From the NCBI RefSeq assembly GCF_055900595.2, contig NZ_CM148325.1: a DNA stretch of 64,000 nt; one strand, written 5' to 3'. The position numbers were made by a program, and so were the translations under genes. The notes under the pieces are model-generated. The model saw nothing but the letters and a program-made list of their open reading frames with translations. It had not been told where the DNA came from and made no database searches. This document shows positions 20,737-57,067 of the stretch, in pieces (within the stretch, counting starts at the first letter, position 1; every line of letters starts with the position of its first letter).

Positions 20737-20741
20737 CTGAA

Positions 20742-20767
20742 TGACCCTGCCCATAAAAGGGCAGGGA
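20742..20767. terminator. Terminator-like hairpin between convergent yhbX and argG
   Basis: ccctgccc-ataaaa-gggcaggg. Confidence 0.5.
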
Positions 20768-20779
20768 AAAATTGAGGTT

Positions 20780-22138
<1,359 letters not shown>

Positions 22139-22173
22139 TTAATTAACTGATGATGAGCCTGGATTTCCGCTCT

Positions 22174-22213
22174 CACTGAATTTTTATGCAAAATAAATGA
22201 GTTTTAATTTAAT
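22174..22213 (-). promoter_or_regulatory. Candidate tandem ArgR (ARG box) operators upstream of argG
   Basis: cacTGAATttttATgCAaa and following AT-rich TGAAT/ATTCA-like motif, 50-90 bp upstream of argG start. Confidence 0.4.
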
Positions 22214-22348
22214 CATCTTTTATCGATGACAGGAAGAGTTTAGTGTGTTTTTTGTAAAATAATGCGCTTAAGGAGGAGCAGTAGAGGGCAAAAGTATTCG
22301 ACAAACGAAAGTGAACTGGATATTCATTCACGCGATTAGCAATAAATG

Positions 22349-22378
22349 TTGACAAAATGTGGCGTGGATCACTATAAT
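22349..22378 (+). promoter_or_regulatory. Near-consensus sigma-70 promoter upstream of metY
   Basis: TTGACA at 22349-22354, 18 bp spacer, TATAAT at 22373-22378; about 95 bp upstream of tRNA. Confidence 0.5.
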
Positions 22379-22470
22379 GACTGCAGATTTTACGTCCCGT
22401 CTCGGTACACCAAATCCCAGCAGTATTTGCATTTTTTACCCAAAACGAGTAGAATTTGCCACGTTTCAGG

Positions 22471-22547
<77 letters not shown>

Positions 22548-22669
22548 CTTTCCCTTAGAGTCCTTTTTCAAATATACTGTGAAGACTTCGGCCTTCGTAG
22601 TGGGATTTGAAAAAATCCTTCTGGAAAGTGCTCCAGACCGCAGTTGCGGTTATAGGGTTCAGTTATATA

Positions 22670-22694
22670 AAGCCCCGATTTATCGGGGTTTTTT
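22670..22694 (+). terminator. Terminator/attenuator-like hairpin between metY and rimP
   Basis: aaagccccgatt-tatcggggtttttt. Confidence 0.5.
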
Positions 22695-22753
22695 GTTATC
22701 TGACTACAGAATAACTGGGCTTTAGGCCCTTTTTTTATGTCTTGGGGGTGGGC

Positions 22754-23206
22754 TTGTCCACATTAGAGCAAAAATTAACAGAGATGATTACTGCGCCAGT
22801 TGAGGCCCTGGGTTTTGAACTGGTTGGCATCGAGTTTATTCGCGGTCGCACATCCACACTGCGCATCTATATTGATAGTGAAGATGGCATCAATGTTGAT
22901 GATTGTGCTGATGTGAGCCACCAGGTAAGTGCTGTGCTGGATGTCGAAGATCCCATCACCGTTGCTTATAACCTGGAAGTCTCCTCACCGGGTCTCGATC
23001 GCCCACTGTTCACGGCTGAACACTACGCCCGTTTCGTCGGAGAAGAGGTGACTCTGGTTCTCCGTATGGCGGTACAAAACCGTCGTAAATGGCAGGGCGT
23101 TATCAAAGCGGTAGACGGTGAAATGATCACAGTTACCGTCGAAGGTAAAGATGAAGTGTTCGCGCTGAGTAATATCCAGAAGGCGAACCTGGTTCCCCAC
23201 TTTTAA
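22754..23206 (+). CDS. rimP: Ribosome maturation factor RimP
   Basis: 150 aa from TTG at 22754 ([15 protein letters not shown]...); start codon choice uncertain (GTG 22748 also possible). Confidence 0.8.
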
Positions 23207-23233
23207 TAGTCTGGATGAGGTGAAAAGCCCGCG

Positions 23234-24721
<1,488 letters not shown>

Positions 24722-38275: not shown

Positions 38276-39271
38276 TCACTGCCATTTACGGTGATACGCG
38301 CCAAGAGTGGTTTGCGTGCCTTCGGACATCGACCCGAGCGTCTCCATCCACGCGCTTTGTGGTACGAAGTTTTGCGGATCGGCCTTACAACGGTCGATAG
38401 CCTGACGCCAGACTTTTGCCACCTGGCTGACATACGCCGGGCTACGCTGGCGGCCTTCAATTTTCACCGAAGCGATATTCGCCGCCATTAACTCCGGCAG
38501 TAGCTCAAGGGTATTGAGACTGGTTGGTTCTTCCAGCGCGTGATAGCGCTCGCCGTCCACCAGATAACGCCCTTTACACAGTGTCGGATAACCTGCGTTT
38601 TCGCCGTCCTGATAACGGTCGATCAGCACTTCGTTCAGGCGAGATTCCAGCCCCTGCGGCGTTTGCTGCCAGCGCACGAAACGGGCCGGAGAACATGCCC
38701 CCACGGTGTTGGGCGACTCACCCGTCAGATACGACGACAGATAGCAACGACCTTCCGACATAATGCACAGACTGCCGAAAGCGAACACTTCCAGCGGTAC
38801 AGGCGTGACCCGCGCCAGTTGTTTCACCTGATGAATCGACAACACGCGCGGCAGCACCACGCGGGCAACGTCAAAATGGCGATGATAAAAGTGAATCGCC
38901 TCTTCATTGGTTGCTGAAGCCTGCACTGACACATGACGTTCAATATGCGGGTATCGCTGGGCGGCGTACTCCAGCATGGCGAGGTCGGCGAGAATCAGCG
39001 CATCGGCACCCAACTGCGCCGCCATATCCACGGCGCGCTGCCAGCGGGCGTAACCGTCCGGATGCGCAAAAGTGTTAATCGCGATGTGAAGTTTGCGGCG
39101 ATGTTGATGGACAAAACTCACCGCTTCCTGCAATTTTTTCTCGGTAAAGTTAAGGCCGGCGAAGTGACGGGCATTGGTATCATCTTTTAGCCCGATATAA
39201 ACAGCATCTGCGCCGTTTTCGATGGCCGCCTTAAGCGCCGGGAGATTTCCGGCAGGGCAGAGCAGCTCCAT
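38276..39271 (-). CDS. ubiU: U32-peptidase-family protein UbiU (YhbU), O2-independent ubiquinone biosynthesis
   Basis: ATG at 39271 gives MELLCPAGNLPALKAAIENGADAVY..., 331 aa. Confidence 0.85.
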   Translation of the reverse strand: MELLCPAGNLPALKAAIENGADAVYIGLKDDTNARHFAGLNFTEKKLQEAVSFVHQHRRKLHIAINTFAHPDGYARWQRAVDMAAQLGADALILADLAMLEYAAQRYPHIERHVSVQASATNEEAIHFYHRHFDVARVVLPRVLSIHQVKQLARVTPVPLEVFAFGSLCIMSEGRCYLSSYLTGESPNTVGACSPARFVRWQQTPQGLESRLNEVLIDRYQDGENAGYPTLCKGRYLVDGERYHALEEPTSLNTLELLPELMAANIASVKIEGRQRSPAYVSQVAKVWRQAIDRCKADPQNFVPQSAWMETLGSMSEGTQTTLGAYHRKWQ

Positions 39272-39479
39272 AATTTTTCCTGAAGGGTGCGCTATCAAAA
39301 CGCAAAAATGTTAACGAACTGGGATTTTAGTTAACCTTGCAGCGACAATTTTTGATTTAAGGCAGTTAAAGTTGTATTGGTGGTAGCAGCAATTTCATAT
39401 GGAATTGTTGATTTATACCGCTATGTTATTTTTCTGATATGGCAAAATAGGATGATTGTTGAAACAGGGAGTAAAACTC

Positions 39480-40004
39480 GTGTTGGATAAACTGCGTTCC
39501 CGTATTGTGCATTTGGGGCCATCTCTGTTGAGTGTACCGGTAAAACTGACGCCATTTGCGCTAAAACGCCAGGTTCTTGAGCAGGTCTTAAGCTGGCAAT
39601 TCCGCCAGGCGCTGGATGATGGCGAGCTGGAGTTTCTTGAAGGGCGCCGGTTAAGTATTCATGTGCGTGATATTGACCTGCAATGGTTTACCTCGGTGGT
39701 GAATGGCAAACTGGTCGTTAGCCAGAACGCGCAAGCTGATGTGAGTTTTAGTGCCGACGCCAGCGATCTGCTGATGATTGCGGCGCGTAAACAAGATCCG
39801 GACACGCTCTTCTTCCAGCGTCGGCTGGTGATTGAAGGCGATACGGAGCTGGGGCTGTATGTGAAAAACCTGATGGACGCCATTGAACTGGAGCAAATGC
39901 CGAAAGCCTTACGCATGATGCTGCTGCAACTGGCGGATTTTGTTGAGGCGGGAATGAAAACCGCGCCTGAAACCAAACAGACATCGGTAGGTGAACCATG
40001 CTAA
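39480..40004 (+). CDS. ubiT: SCP2-domain protein UbiT (YhbT)
   Basis: GTG at 39480 gives MLDKLRSRIVHLGPSLL..., 174 aa; divergent from ubiUV; start codon choice uncertain. Confidence 0.8.
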   Translation: MLDKLRSRIVHLGPSLLSVPVKLTPFALKRQVLEQVLSWQFRQALDDGELEFLEGRRLSIHVRDIDLQWFTSVVNGKLVVSQNAQADVSFSADASDLLMIAARKQDPDTLFFQRRLVIEGDTELGLYVKNLMDAIELEQMPKALRMMLLQLADFVEAGMKTAPETKQTSVGEPC

Positions 40005-40501
40005 TTCGAGTAGAAATTCCCATTGATGCGCCGGGTATTGATGCCCTGCTGCGTCGTTCATTCGAAAGTGATGCGGAAGCGAAGCTGGTTCACGATCTGC
40101 GTGAAGATGGCTTTCTGACGCTGGGGCTGGTGGCGACAGATGACGAAGGTCAGGTCATTGGCTATGTGGCATTCAGTCCGGTTGATGTGCAGGGCGAAGA
40201 CCTGCAATGGGTCGGCATGGCACCGCTGGCGGTAGATGAAAAATACCGTGGACAGGGGCTGGCACGCCAACTGGTCTATGAAGGACTCGATTCGCTTAAT
40301 GAGTTCGGCTATGCCGCAGTGGTGACGCTGGGCGATCCGGCGCTGTACAGTCGTTTCGGCTTTGAGCTGGCGGCGCATCACGATCTGCGTTGCCGCTGGC
40401 CGGGCACTGAAAGCGCCTTCCAGGTACATCGTTTAGCGGATGACGCGCTGAACGGCGTAACCGGTCTGGTTGAGTATCACGAGCACTTCAATCGCTTTTA
40501 A
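39998..40501 (+). CDS. yhbS: GNAT-family N-acetyltransferase YhbS
   Basis: 167 aa ORF overlapping ubiT stop. Confidence 0.9.
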
Positions 40502-40790
40502 TCTTTGGGGTTTGCAGGCTGCTTATCAGCTCTGCAAACCCTGAGCCTTCCGCTACCAGACGTTCTTTTTGCCGTTTGGTCAGTTGTTTAACGCGATATT
40601 CCGCCCGTAGTGCCAGCGAACGGTCGCCCACTGGCGCGGAAAATGCCAGCGTCAGTTCACCTTTCCCACGCAGTGCTTTTGCGCCTTTGCCGCTTTGATG
40701 TTGCTGATAGCGGCGTTCGACATCCGTGGTGATCCCGGTATAAAGCTTATTGTCGGCGGTACGGATCAAGTAAAGAAACCAGGGTGTCAT
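40488..40790 (-). CDS. yhbQ: GIY-YIG nuclease superfamily protein YhbQ
   Basis: ATG at 40790 gives [27 protein letters not shown]..., 100 aa. Confidence 0.85.
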
Positions 40791-40840
40791 CGTCTGCGTC
40801 ACATGTTAAGGTCAGGCCCACAGTATAAAAGAGAACAGCT

Positions 40841-41263
40841 ATGGAAACACTCACCGCCATCAGCCGTTGGCTGGCAAAACAACATGTTGTCACTTGGTGT
40901 GTGCAGCAGGAAGGGGAATTGTGGTGCGCCAATGCCTTTTATCTTTTTGATGCACAGAAAGTTGCCTTCTACATTTTGACGGAGGAAAAAACGCGTCACG
41001 CGCAGATGAGTGGGCCGCAGGCGGCAGTTGCTGGAACGGTAAACGGTCAGCCGAAAACGGTAGCGTTAATTCGCGGCGTGCAGTTTAAAGGTGAGATCCG
41101 CAGACTGGAAGGTGAGGAAAGCGACTTTGCGCGCAAGGCGTATAATCGTCGCTTTCCGGTTGCCAGAATGCTGTCGGCGCCGGTGTGGGAAATCCGGCTT
41201 GATGAAATCAAATTCACTGACAACACGCTGGGCTTTGGTAAAAAAATGATTTGGCTACGTAGC

Positions 41264-41284
<21 letters not shown>
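40841..41284 (+). CDS. yhbP: UPF0306 protein YhbP
   Basis: 147 aa ORF; 3' end overlaps yhbO 3' end by 21 bp. Confidence 0.85.
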
Positions 41285-41820
<536 letters not shown>

Positions 41821-41821
41821 T

Positions 41822-41872
<51 letters not shown>

Positions 41873-41899
41873 GGGAGCGCAAGGCAGACAATTCTGTAA

Positions 41900-42545
<646 letters not shown>

Positions 42546-42617
42546 TTATTCCCAAGAATTGATAGTGAGCGTAATATTCACGCGCTTAATTATCATAATT
42601 TATTCCTGGGGAATGCT

Positions 42618-43658
42618 ATGACTGGTCAGTCTTCATCTCAGGCGGCAACGCCCATTCAGTGGTGGAAACCCGCGCTTTTCTTTCTCGTTGTCATTGCCGG
42701 ACTTTGGTATGTGAAATGGCAACCTTACTACGGTAAAGCCTTTACTGCCGCCGAAACTCACAGTATCGGTAAATCTATCCTTGCGCAGGCGGATGCTAAT
42801 CCGTGGCAAGCTGCGTGGGACTACGCGATGGTCTATTTCCTCGCGGTATGGAAAGCGGCGGTACTGGGGGTGATCCTCGGGTCGTTGATTCAGGTGCTGA
42901 TCCCTCGTGACTGGCTGCTACGCACGCTGGGGCAATCGCGCTTTCGCGGCACGCTGCTGGGAACGCTGTTTTCGCTGCCGGGCATGATGTGTACTTGCTG
43001 TGCGGCACCGGTCGCGGCGGGGATGCGTCGCCAACAGGTGTCGATGGGCGGGGCGCTGGCATTCTGGATGGGCAATCCGTTGTTAAACCCGGCGACGCTG
43101 GTGTTTATGGGTTTTGTCCTCGGCTGGGGCTTTGCGGCGATTCGTCTGGTGGCGGGACTGGTGATGGTGTTGCTGATTGCGACCCTGGTGCAAAAATGGG
43201 TGCGTGAAACACCGCAAACACAGGCACCGGTCGAAATTGACATGCCGGAAGTGCAGGGCGGATTCTTTAGCCGCTGGGGTAGGGCGCTATGGACGCTTTT
43301 CTGGAGTACGATCCCGGTATATATCCTTGCCGTACTGGCGTTGGGTGCCGCTCGCGTCTGGTTATTCCCCCATGCCGATGGTGCTGTCGATAACAGCCTG
43401 ATGTGGGTGATTGCGATGGCGGTAGCGGGATGCTTGTTTGTCATTCCCACGGCAGCAGAAATTCCGATTGTACAAACGATGATGCTGGCAGGTATGGGAA
43501 CCGCTCCGGCGCTGGCATTGTTGATGACGCTTCCTGCTGTAAGTTTGCCGTCGCTGATAATGTTGCGTAAAGCGTTCCCGGCGAAAGCCTTATGGCTGAC
43601 GGGTGCGATGGTGGCGGTGTCTGGTGTGATTGTCGGCGGGCTGGCGCTGTTGTTCTGA
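42618..43658 (+). CDS. yraQ: Permease-family inner membrane protein YraQ
   Basis: 346 aa polytopic ORF. Confidence 0.9.
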   Translation: MTGQSSSQAATPIQWWKPALFFLVVIAGLWYVKWQPYYGKAFTAAETHSIGKSILAQADANPWQAAWDYAMVYFLAVWKAAVLGVILGSLIQVLIPRDWLLRTLGQSRFRGTLLGTLFSLPGMMCTCCAAPVAAGMRRQQVSMGGALAFWMGNPLLNPATLVFMGFVLGWGFAAIRLVAGLVMVLLIATLVQKWVRETPQTQAPVEIDMPEVQGGFFSRWGRALWTLFWSTIPVYILAVLALGAARVWLFPHADGAVDNSLMWVIAMAVAGCLFVIPTAAEIPIVQTMMLAGMGTAPALALLMTLPAVSLPSLIMLRKAFPAKALWLTGAMVAVSGVIVGGLALLF

Positions 43659-43673
43659 TTTGAGGGAAAACAT

Positions 43674-43848
43674 GTCGGATGCGGCGTAAACGCCTTATCC
43701 GACCTACGGTTTGCATCGTTGTAGGCCTGATAAGACGCGGCAAGCGTCGCATCAGGCAACGGCAGTCGGATGCGGCGCAGGCGCCTTATCCGACCTACGG
43801 TTTGCATCGTTGCAGGCCTGATAAGACGCGGCAAGCGTCGCATCAGGC
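43674..43848. repeat. Tandem BIME: two near-identical 84-bp REP-pair units at 91-bp period
   Basis: Unit 1 43674-43757 and unit 2 43765-43848, each gtcggatgcggcg...gccttatccgacctacggtttgcatcgttg.aggcctgataagacgcggcaagcgtcgcatcaggc. Confidence 0.7.
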
Positions 43849-43862
43849 ATTACAAGGCGTTG

Positions 43863-44438
43863 TTATTTAATGAACGTAAACGCCGTGGTTACCCGCTTCA
43901 CGCCGCTTACCCGGCTGGCAATATCTGCCGCCGCTTTCGCTTCACGTTCAGTCACCAGCCCCATCAGGAACACTTCACCGTTTTCGGTGGTCACTTTCAC
44001 GTTGGACGATTTCACCAGGTCGCTGGTTAAGAGCTGCGAACGCACTTTGGTGGTGATCCACGTATCGTTAGACGCTTCGCCCAGACCAATCGGCTGGCCC
44101 TGACGAATCTCGTTATACACTTCGTTGGCACCGTCTACGCCCATAGCAATCTGTTTGGCGCGAGCCGAAAGTTCAGCGTTTGGTGACTGCCCAACCAGCA
44201 GCACTTTGCCCTGATAGGCCGTTACATTAATGCGAGCTTCTTTCTTGATTTGTTCGTCTTTCGACAATGCGCTGTTCACGCGCACTTCCAGGGTTCCATC
44301 ATCCACCTGGGTGCCGACACTGCGTGGGTCAGTTGCGGCTTTTGTACCCACAGCCGCGGTGCCCACTACGGCGGCAGCAACGCAACCTTGCAACAGCAGT
44401 GCGGAAATAAGGACTGCGATTGGCGATAATGCCTTCAT
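43863..44438 (-). CDS. dolP: BON-domain outer membrane lipoprotein DolP (YraP)
   Basis: 191 aa ORF with lipobox LLLQGCVAAA. Confidence 0.9.
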   Translation of the reverse strand: MKALSPIAVLISALLLQGCVAAAVVGTAAVGTKAATDPRSVGTQVDDGTLEVRVNSALSKDEQIKKEARINVTAYQGKVLLVGQSPNAELSARAKQIAMGVDGANEVYNEIRQGQPIGLGEASNDTWITTKVRSQLLTSDLVKSSNVKVTTENGEVFLMGLVTEREAKAAADIASRVSGVKRVTTAFTFIK

Positions 44439-44447
44439 GTATTCTCC

Positions 44448-45038
44448 TTAAACATCCTGGTGAGGGAAAAGCGTGTTATCGATCAGATCGCACAAGCAAT
44501 TTACCGTCAGCATATGCATTTCCTGAATGCGAGCACTACGATGCGAAGGAATGCGGATCTCCACATCCTGTGGCCCTAACAACCCTGCAAGTTCACCGCC
44601 GTCATAGCCAGTCAATGCCACAATGGTCATATCACGCGTAACAGCAGCTTCTACTGCTTTTACGATATCGCGGCTGTTGCCACGGGTGGAAATGGCTAAC
44701 AACACATCTCCCGCATGCCCCAGCGCCCGCACCTGTTTTGCATACACTTCATCATGTAAGCGATCGTTGGCAATCGCCGTTAAGACAACATTATCAGTAT
44801 TTAGTGCAATGGCAGGTAAGCTGGGCCGCTCCGTTTCGAAACGGTTGATCATGCTGGCAGCAAAATGCTGTGCATTGGCAGCGGAAGTTCCATTACCACA
44901 ACAGAGGATTTTGTTGCCATTGAGCAGAGACTGAACCAGCGTCATGGCTGCACGGGAGATGGCATCCGGAAGCGCCTCTGCTGCCGCAATTTGAGTTTGA
45001 ATGCTTTCAGTGAAGCAAGCTTTAATTCGTTCTTGCAC
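44448..45038 (-). CDS. diaA: DnaA initiator-associating protein DiaA (SIS domain)
   Basis: 196 aa [27 protein letters not shown]... Confidence 0.9.
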
Positions 45039-45057
45039 GCTAATCCTTAAACCTTAA

Positions 45058-45453
45058 TTATGAGTGGTCATTAAAGGCATCCTTAATCCACTCAACTTCA
45101 TTCCCGGTGAAGGCTACCACATCGAACCGGCAATCCACAGTATCAAAACTCCCATTATGACGCGCGAGCCACAAGCGGGCAGTCTGTAATAATTTGTGTT
45201 GTTTGCTGCGGGTCACACTGGCTGCCGCACCACCGTAAAGGGCTGAGCGGCGGTAACGCACCTCGACAAAAACGGTGGTCCTGCCTTCACGCATTATCAG
45301 ATCGATCTCGCCGCCACGCTCGTTCACGTTAGCGGCGACAAACCGCAGTCCTTTGCTCTCCAGCCAGCGACGCGCTTGTGCTTCCCACGCATCGCCGGTC
45401 TGTTTAGTGGTTAACTGGCGGGGACTACCTGACCTTGTTGGTACTGTAGCCAT
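45058..45453 (-). CDS. yraN: UPF0102 protein YraN
   Basis: 131 aa ORF; its 5' end overlaps the 3' end of lpoA. Confidence 0.85.
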
Positions 45454-47447
45454 GATAACTTCCTGTTAATTACGCAATCCGGGTTAGCCGTCAGACTTCC
45501 GGTATTACCGTTGATTTCGAAACCCTGAACCTGGCGCATCTGTGAGAAATGATTTGCCAACGACCAGGCATCAACGCCCATCGCATACATGCGAGCCAGC
45601 GAATAATCGTTATTCACCGCACTGAGCGCCTGCTGCATTAATGGCAGATTACCGCCTGCCAGCATCGGGATTTCGCTATATTGCAAACCTTCCATTTCCA
45701 GACGGAAATCCGGACCCGCGGTGCCTTGTGCGCTGCGGGAACTGGCGTACAGCGTTGCACCACTCTGGCTACCGTTACGCATGGCGATCATCGGTTTGAT
45801 AAAAGCGATTTCACCCGGCGTTGCCACAATGTACACCGCATCGACACGACCGCCATTATTGGTGAACTGGTCATCGGTTGGCGTGGTTTGCAGCATTGGA
45901 TTGTTGGTCGTTATGCCTGAATCGGTTGTCGCTCTGGGAGTAATCGGGCTACCGGTTAAAGCGATACCAGAACCACCGTTAACTCCCGCGCGTAATTCGC
46001 TGGTGGAACCAAATTTTTGTTGCAAAACGGTGCCGCCGCCCAGCTTCTGCCACTCTTGCGCAAACGCATTGGCTACGCGATCGCCCAGCGAACTGCGAGG
46101 GATCAGCACCAGTGGCGCTTGTTTACCCTGGTCACGAATATGACGCGCTGCATCGCGCGCTTCGTCTTCCGGTGAAAGCGCGAAGTAACAAATATTGACG
46201 CGGTTTTCGATATTTTCCGGCTGGTTCAGTGCCAGCACGTTCAGCGGGGTGTTGCTTTTCAGTAACTCTTCAACGTTATTTTTCAGCAACGGACCGACCA
46301 CAATACTCGCGCCATCCTGCTGAACCTGGCTTAATATCTGGCTAAGCGGTTGTGATGAGGTATCATAAATTTTCAGCTCTGCGGATGGATTCGCGGGGGC
46401 GCTTACCGCCGCAGTGCTTGCCGCCGGGGCGCTTACAGGCACTGGTTGAGCCGCGGTTTCTTCGCCTGTCAGATCGCTAACCGAGGCTTGTGCCGGGCTG
46501 GCAACGCCGTCAACAGTTTGCTGCAGGGGTTGTTCTGCAACGTCTGCGATTGGTGCGGCAGTTGCCTGTGCCGCCACTGGCTGAGTGCCGATATTTTTCG
46601 CCGCTTCAAAGCCTTGCTGAATAGTGCGACCAAATACCGCTGCCTGGCCATTCAGTGGCAACAGCAGGGCGATTTTGTTGGTTGACGCTGGTTTAAATGC
46701 TTTTACGTTTACCAACTGCGTAGGCAGCATTTTCGCGCCCGGGTTGTTCGGATAACGTTTCTGCCAGTCGGCGATCCCAGCTTTCATCATGCCGGGATCG
46801 TTACGGTTATCAAACCAGACGCGCTGCAGATCAAGCCAGCCTTGCAGAATATTTTCGTCGGCGTTGATCACCAGCGTATTCGCCTGGTCCTGAGTCATGG
46901 AGGAGAGTGCCTGCCATGTAGCATCAATATTCTGTTGCTTTTCTTTCGCGCCGAGCAGGGGTTCCTGAGCAATTAAGGCGCGCAGTAAATCAATGGAAGG
47001 ACGCCCCTGACTGGCATCGATTTTTGCCTGCCAGTAACGCGCCTGCTGGTTTTGATCTAAATCGGCAGGTGTGATTTTCGCCAGCAGGGTTTGTGCGCCA
47101 GCAAAATCTTTCTGCGCCAGCTTAATTTCTACTGCCAGAAGAGTTTTCTCGCGACGCTGGTAATCGTTCAGTTCCTGCGGCAGTTGGTTAAACAGCTCCA
47201 CCGCCTGCCCGGTTTTACCTTCTTTCACCAGTGCACGAATGGCGAGTAATTGCCAGTTGATCCTGGTATCATCAGCGCTTTGCTGCATCTGCTGAAGATA
47301 AAAGGCAGAATCAGCCTGCGCCGTGCCCTGCATATAGGCAGTGGACTGATCGGGAGTATGGGTGCCACAACCGGCGAAAATCAGGGCTGCCAGAACAACA
47401 GGCAGACAACGCGCGGCTTTCAAACGAGAAAATGTTGAGGGTACCAT
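45411..47447 (-). CDS. lpoA: Outer membrane lipoprotein activator of PBP1A, LpoA
   Basis: ATG at 47447 gives [28 protein letters not shown]..., 678 aa. Confidence 0.9.
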
Positions 47448-47511
47448 AATGTATCCAGTGATATTTTTTTTACGCAATGCTCAATATTAAATCGGCAATA
47501 CGGACGACACA

Positions 47512-48375
47512 ATGAAACAACACCAATCGGCGGATAATTCTCAGGGCCAGCTTTACATTGTACCGACGCCAATCGGCAATCTGGCAGATATCACCCAGCG
47601 TGCGTTGGAGGTTTTACAGGCCGTTGATCTGATTGCCGCCGAGGATACGCGTCATACCGGTTTACTGCTGCAACATTTTGGAATTAACGCCAGGTTGTTC
47701 GCCTTGCACGACCATAACGAACAACAGAAAGCCGAAACGTTACTGGCGAAGCTGCAGGAAGGGCAAAACATTGCGCTGGTGTCCGATGCCGGAACGCCAC
47801 TGATTAACGATCCCGGCTATCATCTGGTGCGTACCTGCCGAGAAGCGGGGATTCGCGTGGTGCCACTACCGGGGCCGTGTGCTGCTATCACTGCATTAAG
47901 TGCTGCGGGTTTACCATCCGATCGTTTTTGTTATGAAGGTTTCCTGCCTGCCAAATCAAAAGGCCGTCGTGATGCGCTAAAAGCCATTGAAGCGGAGCCG
48001 CGTACGCTGATTTTTTATGAATCCACCCACCGTCTGTTAGATAGCCTGGAAGATATCGTTGCTGTGCTGGGTGAGTCCCGTTACGTGGTGCTGGCGCGTG
48101 AGCTCACCAAAACCTGGGAAACCATTCACGGCGCGCCCGTTGGCGAGCTGCTGGCGTGGGTCAAAGAAGATGAAAACCGTCGCAAAGGTGAAATGGTGCT
48201 GATTGTTGAAGGCCATAAAGCACAGGAAGAAGACTTACCTGCCGATGCCCTGCGCACGCTGGCGTTGTTACAGGCTGAGCTTCCGCTGAAGAAAGCGGCG
48301 GCGCTGGCAGCAGAGATTCACGGCGTGAAAAAAAACGCGCTGTATAAGTATGCGCTGGAACAGCAGGGGGAGTGA
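47512..48375 (+). CDS. rsmI: 16S rRNA C1402 2'-O-methyltransferase RsmI
   Basis: 287 aa ORF divergent from lpoA. Confidence 0.9.
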
Positions 48376-48379
48376 TTAC

Positions 48380-48412
48380 AGGCGTCGCAGCAAGAATAGA
48401 GCTGCAACGCCT
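48380..48412. terminator. Palindrome between convergent rsmI and agaI (candidate bidirectional terminator)
   Basis: ggcgtcgcagc-aagaataga-gctgcaacgcc imperfect inverted repeat filling the 49-bp gap. Confidence 0.4.
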
Positions 48413-48424
48413 ACACCGGGCGAT

Positions 48425-49192
48425 TTAACGACGACACATCTCATCAATCATGCATGTGAAATAGTTATGCAGCCATAAAAACGAAGCCGGGATAGCGGTA
48501 GAGACTTTAGCCGTGAGAAAACGTTCTGTCGCATCCTGCTTTCCTTCGCCAGTTATCAGTAACAAAACTTCGCGGGCATTGAGAATATCCTTCAGGCCTA
48601 AAGTGATCCCACGAGTCACGGGGCGACCCGCGGTTTTTAACATCTCATGTTGTTGCGTTCTGGTATCAAGCTGGCTGATATGGCTTGCTGGTTGCAGACT
48701 TTCTCCCGGTTCGTTCAGCCCAAGATGGCCGTTTTTTCCCAATCCGAGAACGCATAAATCCAGACCGCCTTTGCGCGCAATCAGGTTCGTTACCCGTTCG
48801 CACTCTGTCTCATTTATCTCTTCAGAGCGAAAGCTGATGAGCTGGTCTTCACGTAGCCCCAGCGGCTGCACGATATGCTGTTGAAGGAAAGTTTCGCAGG
48901 TGCCAGGCATCGTTAATGGCAGATCCACCCATTCGTCGAGCTTCACGAAGGTCAGTTGGCTGACATCAACCTGCTGCTGGTGGATTTTTTCTACCAGATA
49001 ATGATACGTCAGTAATGGCGTGGCTCCGGTCGCCAGGCAAATCACGGCATCCGGTTTGCTACGGATCACGGCCAATAAATATTCGCTGGCACGTTCACTT
49101 AACGCCGTATAGTTTTCAACTTGTTGAAGGGTTTGCACAGGATGAAATTCCTTTAGTAAAGAGGCACCACCAGACGCAGTGCCTCGTTCCAT
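48425..49192 (-). CDS. agaI: Galactosamine-6-phosphate deaminase/isomerase AgaI (NagB family)
   Basis: 255 aa ORF; last gene of the agaS-kbaY-agaBCDI block; ATG directly follows agaD stop. Confidence 0.85.
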   Translation of the reverse strand: MERGTASGGASLLKEFHPVQTLQQVENYTALSERASEYLLAVIRSKPDAVICLATGATPLLTYHYLVEKIHQQQVDVSQLTFVKLDEWVDLPLTMPGTCETFLQQHIVQPLGLREDQLISFRSEEINETECERVTNLIARKGGLDLCVLGLGKNGHLGLNEPGESLQPASHISQLDTRTQQHEMLKTAGRPVTRGITLGLKDILNAREVLLLITGEGKQDATERFLTAKVSTAIPASFLWLHNYFTCMIDEMCRR

Positions 49193-49984
49193 TTACAAAA
49201 TGCCGAATGCGGAACAAACAATAGAGAGCACAAAAGTCACGCCGATTAACAGCACCGGATGCGCTTTTTTCACCCGCAGGAAGTAATACATCAGCAGGGT
49301 GTAGGCCATCGGTAAAATGTTCGGGAAGACTTTATCGAAGAAATCCTGCTGCAGCGCGACGCTGTGGGTACTGTCGATGGCAAACGATGTCACCACGTTA
49401 ATATGCACATACGAAGCGATCAGCCCGCCGATTACCGTGATCCCGAGGATGGTTGCCGAACGAGCAATCATCTGCGAGTTCTCTCGCACTTTATCGATCG
49501 CCTTCACGCCGACTGAATAACCGACGTGGGTCCAGCCGACGCGCAGGAAGAAGATAAGCAGGTAAACGGCGAAAAATAGAATCGGCCCCAGCAAGTTTCC
49601 CTGGCTGGCAAATGATGAGCAAATTCCCGCCATAATCGGCAATAAGGTAAACCAGAAAATCGCATCGCCAATCCCGGCGATTGGGCCAAACAGTGCCACT
49701 TTGAGGCCTTTAATGGTGTCGCGGTTTTCTCCTTTTTCTTCCATCGAAATTAATAACCCCATCAGGAATCCGACCAGATTCGGGTGGGTATTAATAAATT
49801 CGAGATTATCTTTCATCGCCGCGCTTAGGCCCGGTTTGTCGTCCTTATAAATCTTTTTCAGGATCGGCAACATCGCCCAGGTAAAACCTCCCGCCTGCAT
49901 CCTTTCGTAGTTAAAGCTCGCTTGCAGGAGTGACGAACGAAAGCCCAGACGGGTGATATCTTTTTTACTGATTTCAGATCCCAT
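49193..49984 (-). CDS. agaD: PTS galactosamine-specific EIID component AgaD
   Basis: ATG at 49984 gives MGSEISKKDITRLGFRSSLLQASFNYERMQ..., 263 aa; ORF-track start 50131 is an extension inside agaC. Confidence 0.85.
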   Translation of the reverse strand: MGSEISKKDITRLGFRSSLLQASFNYERMQAGGFTWAMLPILKKIYKDDKPGLSAAMKDNLEFINTHPNLVGFLMGLLISMEEKGENRDTIKGLKVALFGPIAGIGDAIFWFTLLPIMAGICSSFASQGNLLGPILFFAVYLLIFFLRVGWTHVGYSVGVKAIDKVRENSQMIARSATILGITVIGGLIASYVHINVVTSFAIDSTHSVALQQDFFDKVFPNILPMAYTLLMYYFLRVKKAHPVLLIGVTFVLSIVCSAFGIL

Positions 49985-50777
49985 TGCTGTAGTCCTCTTC
50001 TTCATTTTTACTGGCAACGGGCTGCGGTTGCGCTTGCTGCCGGGATTTCGCATTGAAAAACTCATACACCGCAAAGCCTGCACCCAGTACGGCAACTGGC
50101 AACAGGTTGCTGACCTGGATGTAGCAAACAAACAAGAAACCGGCGATCAGGTAAGGGATATATTGCGCTTTGAACATCACGCGCAGCAGCAGGCCAAAAC
50201 CAACGGCAGGCAGAATGCCGCCAGCCACTTCAAAGCCGTGGGTCAGCCAGGCGGGCATCGCTTTCACCAGCGCCTGCATCGCCCCTTGCGCCAGGTAAGT
50301 ACAGAGGAAAGCAATCACCGCATACGCTGAAGCGACGATGAGCATCGTTGTCCAGTTAAGTCGGGAAAACGCTGCTGTATCCGCCTCTTTCGCACATTTA
50401 TCGGCTTTGGTCATAAATAATGAGAATGCCGAATAGAAGAACAGAATGACGTACTGCATTAACAAACTAAACGGCAGACCAAGGCCAATTGCCGTTTTGG
50501 CATCGACGCCAGTAGACCACGCAATGACGGTAGTCATCAGACCCGCCATAATTGGGTTGGGCGGCTGTACACCACCTGCGGGGGTTAATCCGGCGAAAGC
50601 CAGTTCTGTTAGGCCACCGGTAATTAAGCCAGTCTGAATATCACCGAGAATAGCACCTGTAAGGGTACAAACGATTATCGGGCGGAATAAAAATAAGGCT
50701 TCCAGCCAAAAATCAATCCCCAGAACGAAAACTAACGCCGCCAGGGATAATCCCTGAATTAGGGTTATTTCATGCAT
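49974..50777 (-). CDS. agaC: PTS galactosamine-specific EIIC component AgaC
   Basis: 267 aa mannose-family EIIC. Confidence 0.9.
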   Translation of the reverse strand: MHEITLIQGLSLAALVFVLGIDFWLEALFLFRPIIVCTLTGAILGDIQTGLITGGLTELAFAGLTPAGGVQPPNPIMAGLMTTVIAWSTGVDAKTAIGLGLPFSLLMQYVILFFYSAFSLFMTKADKCAKEADTAAFSRLNWTTMLIVASAYAVIAFLCTYLAQGAMQALVKAMPAWLTHGFEVAGGILPAVGFGLLLRVMFKAQYIPYLIAGFLFVCYIQVSNLLPVAVLGAGFAVYEFFNAKSRQQAQPQPVASKNEEEDYSNGI

Positions 50778-50816
50778 TTTTATTACCTCAAACCAGTATT
50801 AAGGCGATTTTTGAAT

Positions 50817-51293
50817 TTAGTCAGGGATTTGTTCTTTTTGATCGCCGGGGACGTCCTGAATAAAAATATTCACACCGCGTTGTTTAATAAAGCGTAAGTC
50901 CGCGAGATCTTGATCGTCGATATAAACTTTACTGCTGATTTGCTTTTTACCTTCCGAGAAATGCATATTGCCGACGTTGACATCTTTCAGGTCAATGCCA
51001 CCTTCTATCAATTTACGTACCGTTTGCGGCGTACGGCAAATCAAGAAGATTTTCTGATGCGGTGCAGCTTTGCCGATGACGTTAATGGTTTTTTCGATAG
51101 TAAAGAAACGAATGCCAAAGCCGTAGGTTTCCGCGGTAATACCCATTAATTTTTGTTGAATATCATCGTTAGCGACAACATCATCCACGACTACCAGCAG
51201 ATTTGCACCGATGGTAGATGTCCAGGTCACACCAACCTGACCGTGAACCAGACGGTTATCAATACGGGTTAAGAGAATATTTGGACTGCTCAT
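50817..51293 (-). CDS. agaB: PTS galactosamine-specific EIIB component AgaB
   Basis: 158 aa mannose-family EIIB. Confidence 0.9.
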   Translation of the reverse strand: MSSPNILLTRIDNRLVHGQVGVTWTSTIGANLLVVVDDVVANDDIQQKLMGITAETYGFGIRFFTIEKTINVIGKAAPHQKIFLICRTPQTVRKLIEGGIDLKDVNVGNMHFSEGKKQISSKVYIDDQDLADLRFIKQRGVNIFIQDVPGDQKEQIPD

Positions 51294-51459
51294 TGTGTAA
51301 TCCTCACCATAAAGTTGAATAATATAATTTTTTTAAATATATTATTGTTGCGATATTTTACTGATGTATTTATTAAGGTTTAGTTATCTCCTTTACCATT
51401 AAGGCACTCCCCGATATTAATCGGGAAGTACATTGGGATAAATCATAAAAAACTAATGA

Positions 51460-52332
<873 letters not shown>

Positions 52333-53487
52333 TTATGCCTGCCACGGATGAATGATTACGCCTTGCACCACACGGTTAACGGTGCCGCTGGCTGATGGGG
52401 TATCCGGCGTATTGCCCATGTGCAGCGACTGCATCAGTGCAAACGTCTGGGCGTACATCAGGAAGCAAAATGCCTGCTCAACGTCGATAAAGTGACGTGA
52501 CGGCGGCAGGATGATATGTGGACCGGCGGTAATAACGTCGTTGCCTTCCGCGGCGATGGCGATTACGCGCATTGCCTGGTTGTCACGGCGGAGTTCTGCC
52601 AGCAGATCAAGATCATACTGACGCGTATAGGGGTGGCTGGAGACAAACACCACCACCAGCGTTTCGTCATCGACCAGTGATTTAGGCCCATGACGGAATC
52701 CGGTCGGGGAATCATAAAAGGCCGCCAGTTTACCCGCCGTCAGTTCCAGTACTTTCAGCGCCGACTCGCGTGCTGCGCCCTGTAAGCCACCGCTGCCGAG
52801 ATAAACGATCCGTTTCCACGGTGCGTAACCAAACACACCTTCGCTGAAATCGCCCAGTGAGGTCAGGATCGCCTGGCAACGATCCGCTACGTCGCGGAAG
52901 GTCTGGCTATTGATTGTCTCAGGTGCGAAAACCGCGAGGCAGCTGGCCATCATAGTGGTAATGCTGCTTGTCATCGCAAAGCCGCGATCGTGCGTTTCTG
53001 CGGGCATCAGCAGGGCAAACGCGTTGTCGCTGTTGATCGCGTTTTGGTAAAGAGCGCCCGCTTCGTTGCAGGTGATCGGCAGGTGATAGCATTCCGGTAC
53101 AAACTGATTCGCCAGTTCCACGGCGGCGACGCTTTCCGGGCTGTTGCCAGATCGACCGAAGGAGATCAACAGCAGTGGATGCGCTGGGTTCAGGTATTCC
53201 ATTGGATTGGTGACCAGATCGGTGGTCGGTACGGCGCTGACGTTTTTGCCGGTATGGCTGGCAAGCCACGGCGCGATGATGTCACCGATAAATGCCGAGG
53301 TTCCGGCTCCGGTCAGAATGATCCGCAGATTCTCTTTGCGCAGTAACGGTTCAAGGAAGTTATTGAGAGCTGTACGTAACGCGTCGATGTTGGTGAGTGA
53401 ACGGATCCATGCGCGAGGCTGATGGCGGATCTCTTCTTCAGTCCATGTGCCGGTGGTGGCGGCCGCTGGGGTGTAATTTTCTGGCAT
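52333..53487 (-). CDS. agaS: SIS-domain sugar-phosphate isomerase/deaminase AgaS
   Basis: 384 aa ORF. Confidence 0.9.
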   Translation of the reverse strand: MPENYTPAAATTGTWTEEEIRHQPRAWIRSLTNIDALRTALNNFLEPLLRKENLRIILTGAGTSAFIGDIIAPWLASHTGKNVSAVPTTDLVTNPMEYLNPAHPLLLISFGRSGNSPESVAAVELANQFVPECYHLPITCNEAGALYQNAINSDNAFALLMPAETHDRGFAMTSSITTMMASCLAVFAPETINSQTFRDVADRCQAILTSLGDFSEGVFGYAPWKRIVYLGSGGLQGAARESALKVLELTAGKLAAFYDSPTGFRHGPKSLVDDETLVVVFVSSHPYTRQYDLDLLAELRRDNQAMRVIAIAAEGNDVITAGPHIILPPSRHFIDVEQAFCFLMYAQTFALMQSLHMGNTPDTPSASGTVNRVVQGVIIHPWQA

Positions 53488-53539
53488 AACTCAATCCTTA
53501 GTCTGATGAACTTGACTTCCGGCATTGCAGGTTTCGCTT

Positions 53540-53660
53540 GCCTTTCGTTTCATTTCACTTGGTGATTCGTTTCGTTGATTAAAATCTATAGAAAAGAAAT
53601 CGAAAGTTCAATGGAGAAAAAAGAAATAAAACGAAATTTGTGATCGTTGAAAGAAAAGAC
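53540..53660 (-). promoter_or_regulatory. agaS promoter region with iterated AgaR operator-like motifs
   Basis: Repeated CTTTCGTTTCATTTC / TTCGTTTCGTT / AAAGAAATCGAAAG / AAAACGAAAT motifs just upstream of agaS. Confidence 0.4.
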
Positions 53661-53837
53661 AAGGGAAGATTAAAGGATTGCGTGATGACGTCGCTATGTG
53701 TACCGATTGCTGGAAGCGGCGTACCGTAGAGCGGATAAGACGCGCCAGCGTCGCATTCGACACCACTGCACAGATTAAAACGAAAGAAAAAGAAAGGCCT
53801 TACGGGGGAAGTGAAGGCCCAATAAAGGAGCAAACCA

Positions 53838-54971
53838 TCAAAACGAAGCTAATTGACCCTGAATCCAGATTTGTTGCACATACAGTCCGCTATTCAGCGC
53901 AACGACGCTGGCGCGTTTGCCCGGTTTAAGTGATCCCAGAACACCATCAACACCCAGCATTCGCGCCGGATGCAGCGATGCCATATGGATGGCTTCCGCA
54001 GGCGTTACGCCCGTCAACTCGACCATGTTGCGCACTGCCGCATCGACAGACAGCGTACTGCCCGCCAGCCCACCGGACGCGGTACGGACAACGCCACCGC
54101 GCATCTGCACTTCTTCACCACATAACGTATATTGACCATCCGGCATCCCGGCTGCCTGCATCGCATCAGTTATCAGCACTATTCTCTCTTTCGCACAGCA
54201 ACAACACAGCGACATCGCCGCCGGATGTACATGATGCCCATCGGCTATCAATTCCAGCCAGGCGCGCTTGTCCGTTAAACCCGCGCCAACCATTCCCGGT
54301 TCGCGGTGATGTAATCCTGTCATCCCGTTATAGCAATGCACCAGGCCGTCTGCGCCAGCATCAAATACGGCGCGGGTTTGTTGCCAGGTTGCTGCGCTAT
54401 GTCCCAGCATTACCCGCACGTTCTGCTGTTTAAGATGACGAATGGCTTGTAACGCGCCCGTTTTTTCCGGTGCCAGCGCCACCACGCGCAAGGTATGCCG
54501 TGAAACAGCAATCAATTGATCCAGCTCGGCAATTTCCAGCTCGCGAAACAGCTCCGGCGGATGTGCGCCTTTATTCTGCGGCGTGAAGTACGGTCCTTCG
54601 AGATAACTCCCCAGCACTTGCGCACCAGGTCCACCGCGCTGGCAGCGTAGAGCAATACGTTCCAGCGCCGCATGAATGGTATTAAGCGGCGCGGTTACGG
54701 TAGTCGGCAACCAACTGCCGACACCTTCCCGTGCCTTGTGCATTGCCAGCTTGTCGAGCACATCCGGCGCGTCATCCATAACATCAACGCCCGCACCACC
54801 GTGTACATGGGTATCGATATAAGCGGGGCAGAGCAGTTCCGCATCGCGTTCAGTCACGCCCACTGGAATCGGTTCGATTGCTGCAATTACACCGTCAGCA
54901 ATATGCAACTGATGATCATCAAGCCAGCCCTCCTCAGTCAGCAGTCTTCTGGCGCGCAGAACGTGTGTCAT
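53838..54971 (-). CDS. agaA: N-acetylgalactosamine-6-phosphate deacetylase AgaA (full length)
   Basis: ATG at 54971 gives MTHVLRARRLLTEEGWLDD..., about 377 aa NagA-like amidohydrolase; uninterrupted. Confidence 0.85.
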   Translation of the reverse strand: MTHVLRARRLLTEEGWLDDHQLHIADGVIAAIEPIPVGVTERDAELLCPAYIDTHVHGGAGVDVMDDAPDVLDKLAMHKAREGVGSWLPTTVTAPLNTIHAALERIALRCQRGGPGAQVLGSYLEGPYFTPQNKGAHPPELFRELEIAELDQLIAVSRHTLRVVALAPEKTGALQAIRHLKQQNVRVMLGHSAATWQQTRAVFDAGADGLVHCYNGMTGLHHREPGMVGAGLTDKRAWLELIADGHHVHPAAMSLCCCCAKERIVLITDAMQAAGMPDGQYTLCGEEVQMRGGVVRTASGGLAGSTLSVDAAVRNMVELTGVTPAEAIHMASLHPARMLGVDGVLGSLKPGKRASVVALNSGLYVQQIWIQGQLASF

Positions 54972-55402
54972 ATTCCTTCCTCGACCGGACATTCTTCATG
55001 GCAGCGGCCTAACTCGTCTACCAGACTGGTCAGCCCACGGTGTCCACACTCCAGCGCCTGCACACGGAATTCTTCACCGCTTAACCCTTCGCGCTCCAGC
55101 ACCATTTCCAGTAACAGTTGCAAATTGGTGCCGGTGATCACTTCATAGCCCGGTTTTTGCATCGCCAGCGTTGAAGCCACGCGAAACGGTGTGCCGCCCA
55201 GCAAATCTGTCAGAAAAACAATGCCGTCTTCACAATCCAGTTGGGCGATGGCTTCTTCAAGCTGCGATGTAAGCAGCGCAGTGCTTGAGGTTTCCGGAAA
55301 ATCAATGGCGATAAACTGCGACTGCTCGCCGAGGATTTGCTTCATTGCTTTTTCCATGCCGCTGGCAAATCCGCCATGCCCTGTCAAAATAATACTTAAC
55401 AT
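54968..55402 (-). CDS. agaF: PTS N-acetylgalactosamine/galactosamine EIIA component AgaF
   Basis: 144 aa mannose-family EIIA. Confidence 0.85.
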   Translation of the reverse strand: MLSIILTGHGGFASGMEKAMKQILGEQSQFIAIDFPETSSTALLTSQLEEAIAQLDCEDGIVFLTDLLGGTPFRVASTLAMQKPGYEVITGTNLQLLLEMVLEREGLSGEEFRVQALECGHRGLTSLVDELGRCHEECPVEEGI

Positions 55403-55419
55403 CTAATACCTCATTGTAT

Positions 55420-56298
55420 TTAAAGGAAATGACAGAATTTACCGACGATGCCAAGAACCACGGTAACCGCAATCAGGCGCAGCGGACTCCAGCCGCGGCG
55501 TACCAGCCAGAACATGGTCAGGGTGTAGACCAGCGGTAAGAAGGCAGGCATCAGTTTGTCGATAACGTCAGCCTGCAGCTTAACCACTGCGTCGCCCGCC
55601 GTGATTTCCAGCGTGGTGCTTAAACGAACATAGGTTGCCACCAGCGCGCCGATTACCGTCATCCCAACGATTGACGCAGCATGGCCGACTTTTTTGGTAT
55701 TCGCTTTAATGAGTGGAATCGCCGCCACGCCCATGCGGTAAGCATAATGCGCCAGACCAAAACGCAGCCCCAGGTGTACCACGTTGAACAGCACAATAAA
55801 GACGACTGCGCCAAGAATAGAGCCTTGCAATGCCAGACTGGCTCCAATCCCGCCACAAATCGGCAGTAACGTTAGCCAGAACATGGCATCGCCAATCCCG
55901 CCGAGCGGCGCACCGACGGCAATTTTGGTGCTCTGAATACTGTTAACGTCCTGCTTAGAACGCTCCATCGCAAGGATAATGCCGATAACAAACGTCACCA
56001 GAAACGGATGGGTATTGAAGAAACCCATATGTCCCTTCATGGCGCGCGCCAGGTCGCGTTTATTAGTGTGGATCTTTTTCAGAGCAGGCAGCAGACCGTA
56101 CAACCAGCCGGAAGCCTGCATACGTTCGTAGTTAAAAGACGCTTGTAACAGCATGGAACGCCAGGCGACGCGGTTGATATCTTTTTTCGTCAGCTCTGCG
56201 CCAATGCTCTGATCTTCATACACGTTTTCATTGACGCCTGTCAGCAGTGTCTCTTCATTTTCGCTGACGTTCGGCAGGGTGGTTTGATTAGATGCCAT
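55420..56298 (-). CDS. agaE: PTS N-acetylgalactosamine-specific EIID component AgaE
   Basis: ATG at 56298 gives MASNQTTLPNV..., about 292 aa; 11-bp overlap with agaW like the agaC/agaD junction. Confidence 0.85.
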   Translation of the reverse strand: MASNQTTLPNVSENEETLLTGVNENVYEDQSIGAELTKKDINRVAWRSMLLQASFNYERMQASGWLYGLLPALKKIHTNKRDLARAMKGHMGFFNTHPFLVTFVIGIILAMERSKQDVNSIQSTKIAVGAPLGGIGDAMFWLTLLPICGGIGASLALQGSILGAVVFIVLFNVVHLGLRFGLAHYAYRMGVAAIPLIKANTKKVGHAASIVGMTVIGALVATYVRLSTTLEITAGDAVVKLQADVIDKLMPAFLPLVYTLTMFWLVRRGWSPLRLIAVTVVLGIVGKFCHFL

Positions 56299-57067
56299 CT
56301 TCAAATTCCTCTTTCTGTGCCGCAGGTTGAGTCGGTTCAGGAGATTTACGCAGCAAGTCGATCAGCGCCATCGCCAGCGCGGCGGCAGCAATAGCCAGCA
56401 CCGGTAACTTGAGCCAGGCTGCGGCAACAAAGCCCAGGATGAAGTAGGGGATGTAGACGTTTTTCATCATGATTTTCAGCAGCACGGCAAAACCGATTGC
56501 TGGCATGATGCCACCCGCGACGCCGAGGCCGTCGATTAATCGTTGCGGCAGGACATCAATGATGGTTTTGGCATGTTCTGCGCCGAAGTAGATAGGCAGG
56601 AAAGCGCAGAGAAAATAGAACGTGCCGAGTGCCAACAGTGCCAGATAGTTCACGCGTTCAATGCCGCGTGTATCGGCGTTCTCCGCCATCCGGTCGCAGC
56701 GGGACATTACGCCAGACATCACCGAGAACAGGAAGGTAATCCCCATCTGTACTGCGACAGCGAAAGGTACGGCGACACCGACCGCGACATCCGGTTTCAC
56801 GCCAGTAGTAATGGCAAACGCCGTGCCGACGATAGTTCCGATAATCACGTTAGGCGGCTGTGCGCCCGCCAGTGGTGCCAGCCCCATCCACACCAGTTCC
56901 AGCGTACCGCCGGTTAAAATACCGGTATGCAGATCGCCAAGCACCAACCCAACTAACGGGCCGAGGACCACCGGGCGGTGCATATGGGTCAAGCCGTTAA
57001 ACATATCCAGGCCAGCGATAAAGGCGATAATGCCCAACGCAAATGCCTGCAACAGACTGATTTCCAT
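56288..57067 (-). CDS. agaW: PTS N-acetylgalactosamine-specific EIIC component AgaW (full length)
   Basis: 259 aa mannose-family EIIC, paralogous to AgaC; uninterrupted. Confidence 0.85.
   Translation of the reverse strand: MEISLLQAFALGIIAFIAGLDMFNGLTHMHRPVVLGPLVGLVLGDLHTGILTGGTLELVWMGLAPLAGAQPPNVIIGTIVGTAFAITTGVKPDVAVGVAVPFAVAVQMGITFLFSVMSGVMSRCDRMAENADTRGIERVNYLALLALGTFYFLCAFLPIYFGAEHAKTIIDVLPQRLIDGLGVAGGIMPAIGFAVLLKIMMKNVYIPYFILGFVAAAWLKLPVLAIAAAALAMALIDLLRKSPEPTQPAAQKEEFEDGI

Follow-up and report, generated by a model that had tools for sequence, protein, structure and literature searches.

Why do rsmI and agaI lie side by side in the window, the 64-kb stretch of DNA analysed here, when the yraHIJK fimbrial operon separates the same two genes in E. 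coli K-12? The first-pass annotation of the window, which assumed the K-12 gene order agaI-yraHIJK-rsmI, left the answer as an either/or between an ancestral empty site and a clean deletion. The assumed order is right: a K-12 derivative has the order rsmI, yraK, yraJ, yraI, yraH, agaI, and the reservation that agaI might adjoin rsmI in K-12 too falls away. The operon is, however, larger than the 'about 4.5 kb' first given, with a yraH-yraK coding span of 5,007 bp, a distance of 5,449 bp from the rsmI stop codon to the agaI stop codon, and an allele-specific segment of 5,483 bp.

We located both genes in the window by their open reading frames and through the RefSeq annotation of a near-identical record, NZ_CP098223.1 (E. 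coli Z0117EC0005), which contains the same rsmI and agaI genes and shows 18 differences from the window over 64 kb. The rsmI gene (16S rRNA C1402 2'-O-methyltransferase) occupies positions 47512-48375 on the + strand, and its translation has 287 amino acids; agaI, annotated as galactosamine-6-phosphate isomerase, lies on the - strand at 48425-49192 (255 amino acids). The spacer between the convergent stop codons (48376-48424) measures 49 bp, exactly as first described, and the same 49 bp recur unchanged in three further genomes of Escherichia cryptic clade I, the lineage to which we assign the window below. No fimbrial subunit, chaperone or usher had been noticed in the window, and similarity search and annotation agree with this: the K-12 YraH, YraI, YraJ and YraK proteins gave no tblastn match in the 64 kb at E<=1e-5, and none of the 70 annotated features of NZ_CP098223.1 is fimbrial. 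The junction likewise has no insertion sequence (IS), no target-site duplication and no truncated flanking gene, all of them marks of an IS- or transposon-mediated deletion, and a repeat search found no terminal direct or inverted repeats there. The scar-free appearance reported at first reading is thus borne out by annotation and repeat search.

The spacer holds the single imperfect palindrome that had been described, at 48380-48412. Its 12-bp arms (AGGCGTCGCAGC and GCTGCAACGCCT) enclose a 9-nt loop and contain one mismatch, which is a C.A in RNA of the + strand and a G.U in RNA of the - strand. RNA of the agaI strand folds better than RNA of the rsmI strand because the mismatch becomes a G.U pair there, with predicted energies of -26.2 kcal/mol (z = -5.5) for the - strand and -19.5 kcal/mol (z = -1.9) for the + strand. 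The element is a G+C-rich stem-loop, as expected of an intrinsic terminator; there is no U-tract 3' of the stem and no T-run on either strand, and a terminator scan did not call it. The hairpin is kept in eight sequences, with a compensatory G-C to A-T change in strain E69. One such pair in one sequence is not above the shuffle control for covariation, and an Rfam scan of 47000-49600 at E<=1 gave no match; we do not claim this putative hairpin as a selected RNA structure. A REP-type repeat was considered as well and rejected, since the palindrome occurs only once in the window. By inference, this hairpin would be the 3'-end structure shared by both convergent transcripts.

We compared the window with the K-12 allele by blastn. 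Homology stops at 48369 and restarts at 48468, so that a haplotype-specific segment of 98 bp here (48370-48467) stands against 5,483 bp in K-12 (L001:2518-8000). Each breakpoint falls slightly within a gene rather than at its end: the 98-bp segment comprises the last two rsmI codons, the spacer, and the last 14 agaI codons plus the stop. Since homology ends within the genes, the two alleles encode different RsmI and AgaI C-termini. RsmI ends in ...QQGE in the window (287 amino acids) and is one residue longer than K-12 RsmI, which ends in ...QQG (286 amino acids). The AgaI of the window ends in ...FLWLHNYFTCMIDEMCRR (255 amino acids; also given as ...NYFTCMIDEMCRR) and that of K-12 in ...FLWLHSNFICLINT (251 amino acids), the very end of the latter reading ...SNFICLINT. 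In the K-12 allele, rsmI is followed by a canonical hairpin with a T-run, and agaI by an AT-rich region devoid of a hairpin. The yra block has a GC content of 45.1%, with a regulatory spacer of 27% GC, and its flanks have 50-55%. We searched the ends of the K-12 block for terminal direct or inverted repeats and found none. Local alignment of the 98-bp junction with both strands of the 5.5-kb K-12 block returned only 14-nt chance matches, and thus no relic of either allele is contained in the other. The same gap between conserved genes is filled in two sequence-unrelated ways, neither of which has mobile-element features.

An origin for the 98 bp emerges when the segment is compared with relatives that also lack the operon. 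It aligns gap-free with the corresponding sequence of E. coli Nissle 1917 (10 substitutions), Escherichia sp. E1V33 (11 substitutions), E. albertii (12 substitutions) and the divergent 'E. coli' E69 (16 substitutions), and it shows no difference from three other clade I genomes. The window thus combines a convergent spacer of about 49 bp, a gap-free alignment to outgroups and the absence of yra genes, the features by which we recognize the empty haplotype. A deletion cannot create a segment that is orthologous to outgroup sequence, and we conclude that the window, from a clade I strain, very probably inherited its rsmI-agaI locus in the empty form. Of the two possibilities raised initially, the empty site is thus the favoured one, on the strength of orthology to E. 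albertii, Nissle 1917 and two divergent Escherichia. In Trabulsiella odontotermitis agaI also adjoins rsmI, across a different spacer of about 138 bp (L009:8672-8811). This spacer contains REP-like palindromes (GCCGGATAAG...), and rsmI ends there in GGG TAA, as in K-12; the Escherichia empty allele has GGG GAG TGA. Given that the two genes are neighbours in Trabulsiella and E. albertii as well, the empty state can be called ancestral for the clade I lineage and for the adjacency as such. As a separate observation, AgaD of E. albertii NBRC 107761 was recovered in two overlapping tblastn pieces (residues 1-92 and 84-263; L006:7210-7997), which suggests a possible agaD frameshift in that strain.

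The window had been treated as K-12-like E. coli, and this part of the initial reading has to be revised. We compared two regions of the window, 38409-55370 and 20000-24000, with complete genomes. Over 16.9 kb, a value for one locus rather than for a whole genome, the window shares 98.5% identity with EC42405 and 95.4% with both K-12 and Nissle. EC42405 and 2013C-4282 have been named as completely sequenced strains of cryptic clade I, a group with >98.3% average nucleotide identity (ANI) within the clade and >95.9% ANI to E. coli (PMC10100065); the identity to EC42405 agrees with the published thresholds (>98.3% within the clade, about 96% to E. coli). In comparisons with the lpoA-rsmI part of the window, only 18 of 5,424 genomes reach an identity of 95% or more, and all others fall in the range of 90-95%. 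The same 18 genomes, EC42405 and 2013C-4282 among them, are the closest in the second region as well. Taken together, these identities place the window in Escherichia cryptic clade I and not in E. coli sensu stricto. Among complete genomes, Z0117EC0005, from a dog in South Korea, is the nearest, with 18 mismatches over the 64 kb, and seven human isolates are as close in the regions tested.

All four clade I genomes that we inspected have the empty junction, and the lack of yra thus characterises the clade rather than the strain. As for homologues elsewhere in the genome, we queried all complete E. coli genomes by megablast with a chimeric sequence in which the lineage-specific lpoA-rsmI part of the window is joined to a reverse-complemented 1.5-kb fragment of the K-12 yraJ gene. 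Z0117EC0005 ranked first, and its single place was the lpoA-rsmI part. The near-identical Z0117EC0005 chromosome hence has no K-12-like yraJ, at a megablast sensitivity of roughly >=85% nucleotide identity that leaves distant usher homologues out of range. In the whole collection the chimeric query had three plasmid places, as many as the lpoA-rsmI query alone. Among the 18 clade I-like genomes, E. coli AST85 alone has a second place for the chimeric query, which may be a duplicated lpoA or a copy of yraJ; its lpoA-rsmI match already falls into two pieces with the lpoA-rsmI query alone.

The empty site is also common beyond clade I. A 2-kb query across the junction was found contiguous, in one place, in 1,835 of 5,426 complete E. 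coli genomes, Nissle 1917 and ST131 included. The yra block is present in 3,523 of the 5,426 (about 65%), always on the chromosome, the median being one location per genome. The two counts add up to 5,358, and the remainder includes decayed versions such as that of EC25 (L015:5058-6167), in which an IS1-bounded deletion starts within mtr, takes out rsmI and covers most of the yra block. In several lineages the yra operon is interrupted by IS elements: IS1203 in O157:H7 strains, an IS3-family element in JE86-ST05, and IS1 in strains 410, EC09 and N385.

Much of this pattern is on record. Gain of yra by the E/B1/A lineage has been published, with the pattern covered by two studies taken together (PMC6896753, PMC11565901); Yra determinants are significantly associated with non-B2 lineages (PMC11565901), and the genes that only A/B1 urinary isolates were found to express include yra (PMC4128348). 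Yra is not named in the text of Wurpel et al. 2013 (PMC3559732). The feature is thus an already known and common presence/absence polymorphism, to which our analysis adds the precise positions of the breakpoints within the gene tails, the assignment of the window to clade I and the finding of a third haplotype at this locus.

These comparisons outline how the locus may have reached its present state. The junction in the window does not stem from a deletion in the strain but is the version that occurs in clade I, E. albertii and the D, F, G and B2 groups of E. coli. The alternative haplotype has a 5.5-kb, low-GC block of four chaperone-usher genes, yraHIJK, in place of the 98 bp, and this block supplies the final codons of both flanking genes as well as a terminator downstream of rsmI. 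We infer that the haplotypes would be gained, lost and exchanged only by homologous recombination in the lpoA/rsmI and aga flanks. The expected outcome for a strain such as that of the window is the lack of Yra fimbriae and slightly different RsmI and AgaI tails.

The flanks of the junction differ sharply in their divergence. RsmI of the window and of K-12 are 100% identical over 286 amino acids, and the genes are 92.1% identical in nucleotide sequence, with dN of 0.000 and dS of 0.41; the rsmI of the window is as distant from E. coli as E. albertii is. The entire stretch 45500-48467, comprising lpoA, rsmI and the junction, is only 92-94% identical to all genomes of E. coli sensu stricto. The adjacent aga genes are close to those of K-12 (dS 0.06-0.18), and the step between the two coincides with the haplotype breakpoint at about 48468. 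We initially considered the divergent lpoA-rsmI part as a foreign import into an E. coli strain and dropped this idea, the closest genomes being clade I across 17 kb. A second locally divergent stretch lies at 20000-24000 (yhbX/phosphoethanolamine transferase, argG, tRNA-Met, rimP and nusA); it is 100% identical in the eight genomes of the window's sublineage, only 93-94% identical to other clade I and 92.7% identical to E. coli. Further into the aga side, the aga/gam cluster is intact in the window (agaW-agaE-agaF-agaA/nagA, 53838-57067, - strand). K-12 lacks about 2.3 kb that correspond to 54397-56691 of the window and is left with truncated agaW and agaA pseudogenes.

The divergence step bears on an alternative in which the empty state is secondary. 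Here, a clade I ancestor would have possessed a chaperone-usher operon between agaI and rsmI and had it replaced by an empty allele that was imported, together with lpoA-rsmI, from another Escherichia lineage. An lpoA-rsmI-junction block that is as far from E. coli as E. albertii (92.1%, dS 0.41), meeting aga genes with dS of 0.06-0.18 in a switch at about 48468, would fit such an exchange, and the occupied haplotype is old as well. E. whittamii has yraHIJK at the same site, with 83-90% amino-acid identity. Its yra genes have dS of 0.67-0.88 from those of K-12, above the 0.2-0.55 of the flanking genes, which argues against a recent transfer between the E. whittamii and K-12 lineages. A four-gene chaperone-usher operon of yraHIJK layout, with only 53-65% protein identity to Yra, occupies the same site in Escherichia sp. 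MOD1-EC7003 (L008:9137-14152). 'E. coli' 18KM2445 (L016:2447-7461) and MEW, the only 2 of the 5,426 complete 'E. coli' genomes with this variant, have an 80%-identical copy of it between agaI and rsmI. With the variant operon at the site in three genomes, a clade I ancestor could have swapped an operon for the empty allele. We nevertheless regard this replacement as unlikely. No donor was found, the block lying at much the same distance from all sampled lineages, and every clade I genome inspected has the empty state. Homogenisation of the aga side with yra-bearing E. coli, reaching as far as the homology extends, explains the step itself equally well. Under inheritance and secondary replacement alike, the junction is an inherited empty allele and not a deletion scar.

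The rsmI-agaI site therefore has at least three haplotypes in the genus, namely empty, yraHIJK and the variant operon, as judged from the genomes compared. Because the occupied haplotype, known from E. whittamii and MOD1-EC7003, is old too, the empty state is no more than a candidate for the original one at the root of Escherichia, in a sample that does not extend to E. fergusonii, E. marmotae and E. ruysiae. A tentative extension, which we consider possible but somewhat doubtful, is that the site harbours a long-lived trans-species polymorphism of three or more haplotypes that are exchanged by recombination only, with the end of homology at the indel acting as a local recombination barrier. 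If true, such a barrier would explain why rsmI with dS of 0.41 meets aga genes with dS of 0.06-0.18 exactly at the clade I junction.

The alternatives that invoke loss by deletion or through an IS fare far worse than inheritance of the empty allele. A recent, precise deletion of yraHIJK from a K-12-like allele in this lineage would at first sight look like the present junction, with no scar visible; it is highly improbable, since the 98 bp, including both gene tails, have no counterpart in K-12 yet match E. albertii and B2 strains position by position. An IS-mediated loss followed by IS excision can be dismissed as scarcely conceivable: although IS insertions and deletions do occur in the operon elsewhere (IS1 in EC25, N385 and EC09; IS3-family elements in O157:H7 and JE86-ST05), the window has no IS, target-site duplication or truncated gene, rsmI and agaI have their full length, as they do in outgroups, and the orthology of the junction to outgroups contradicts it.

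For the reading of this genome, the absence of Yra is no marker of recent genome decay; an empty site is what a third of E. coli, and clade I, normally have. Given the clade I identity of the window, its other apparent differences from K-12 call for equal caution. The patchy distribution of Yra is already documented, and the locus is of little importance for discovery. It provides a scar-free example of a fimbrial block that is swapped via flanking homology, with the C-termini of the neighbouring genes changing too.

We finally compared the junction with well-defined states of the same locus. EC25 also lacks yraHIJK, but it keeps an IS1, a truncated mtr, 167 bp of the yra-side spacer and a K-12-type agaI tail, and has lost rsmI and lpoA, none of which applies to the window. 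EC25 shows what IS-mediated loss looks like at the rsmI-agaI locus. The K-12 yraHIJK locus, whose fimbriae are classed as gamma1 chaperone-usher fimbriae (PMC3032704, PMC11565901), has the same flanking genes in the same orientation as the window and differs in that four fimbrial genes in 5,483 bp replace the 98 bp and in its gene tails. The B2 junction of Nissle 1917 and ST131 is much closer, with a 49-bp spacer, a 287-aa RsmI, a 255-aa AgaI, the same hairpin and no yra; it is set apart by about 8% nucleotide divergence across the junction region, including the 10 substitutions in 98 bp, and by an rsmI that is 92.5% identical. E. albertii NBRC 107761, finally, has an empty junction of equal length with the same protein tails (...TDEMCRR for AgaI and ...QQGE for RsmI), differing by the 12 substitutions in 98 bp and by an agaI that is 89.8% identical.
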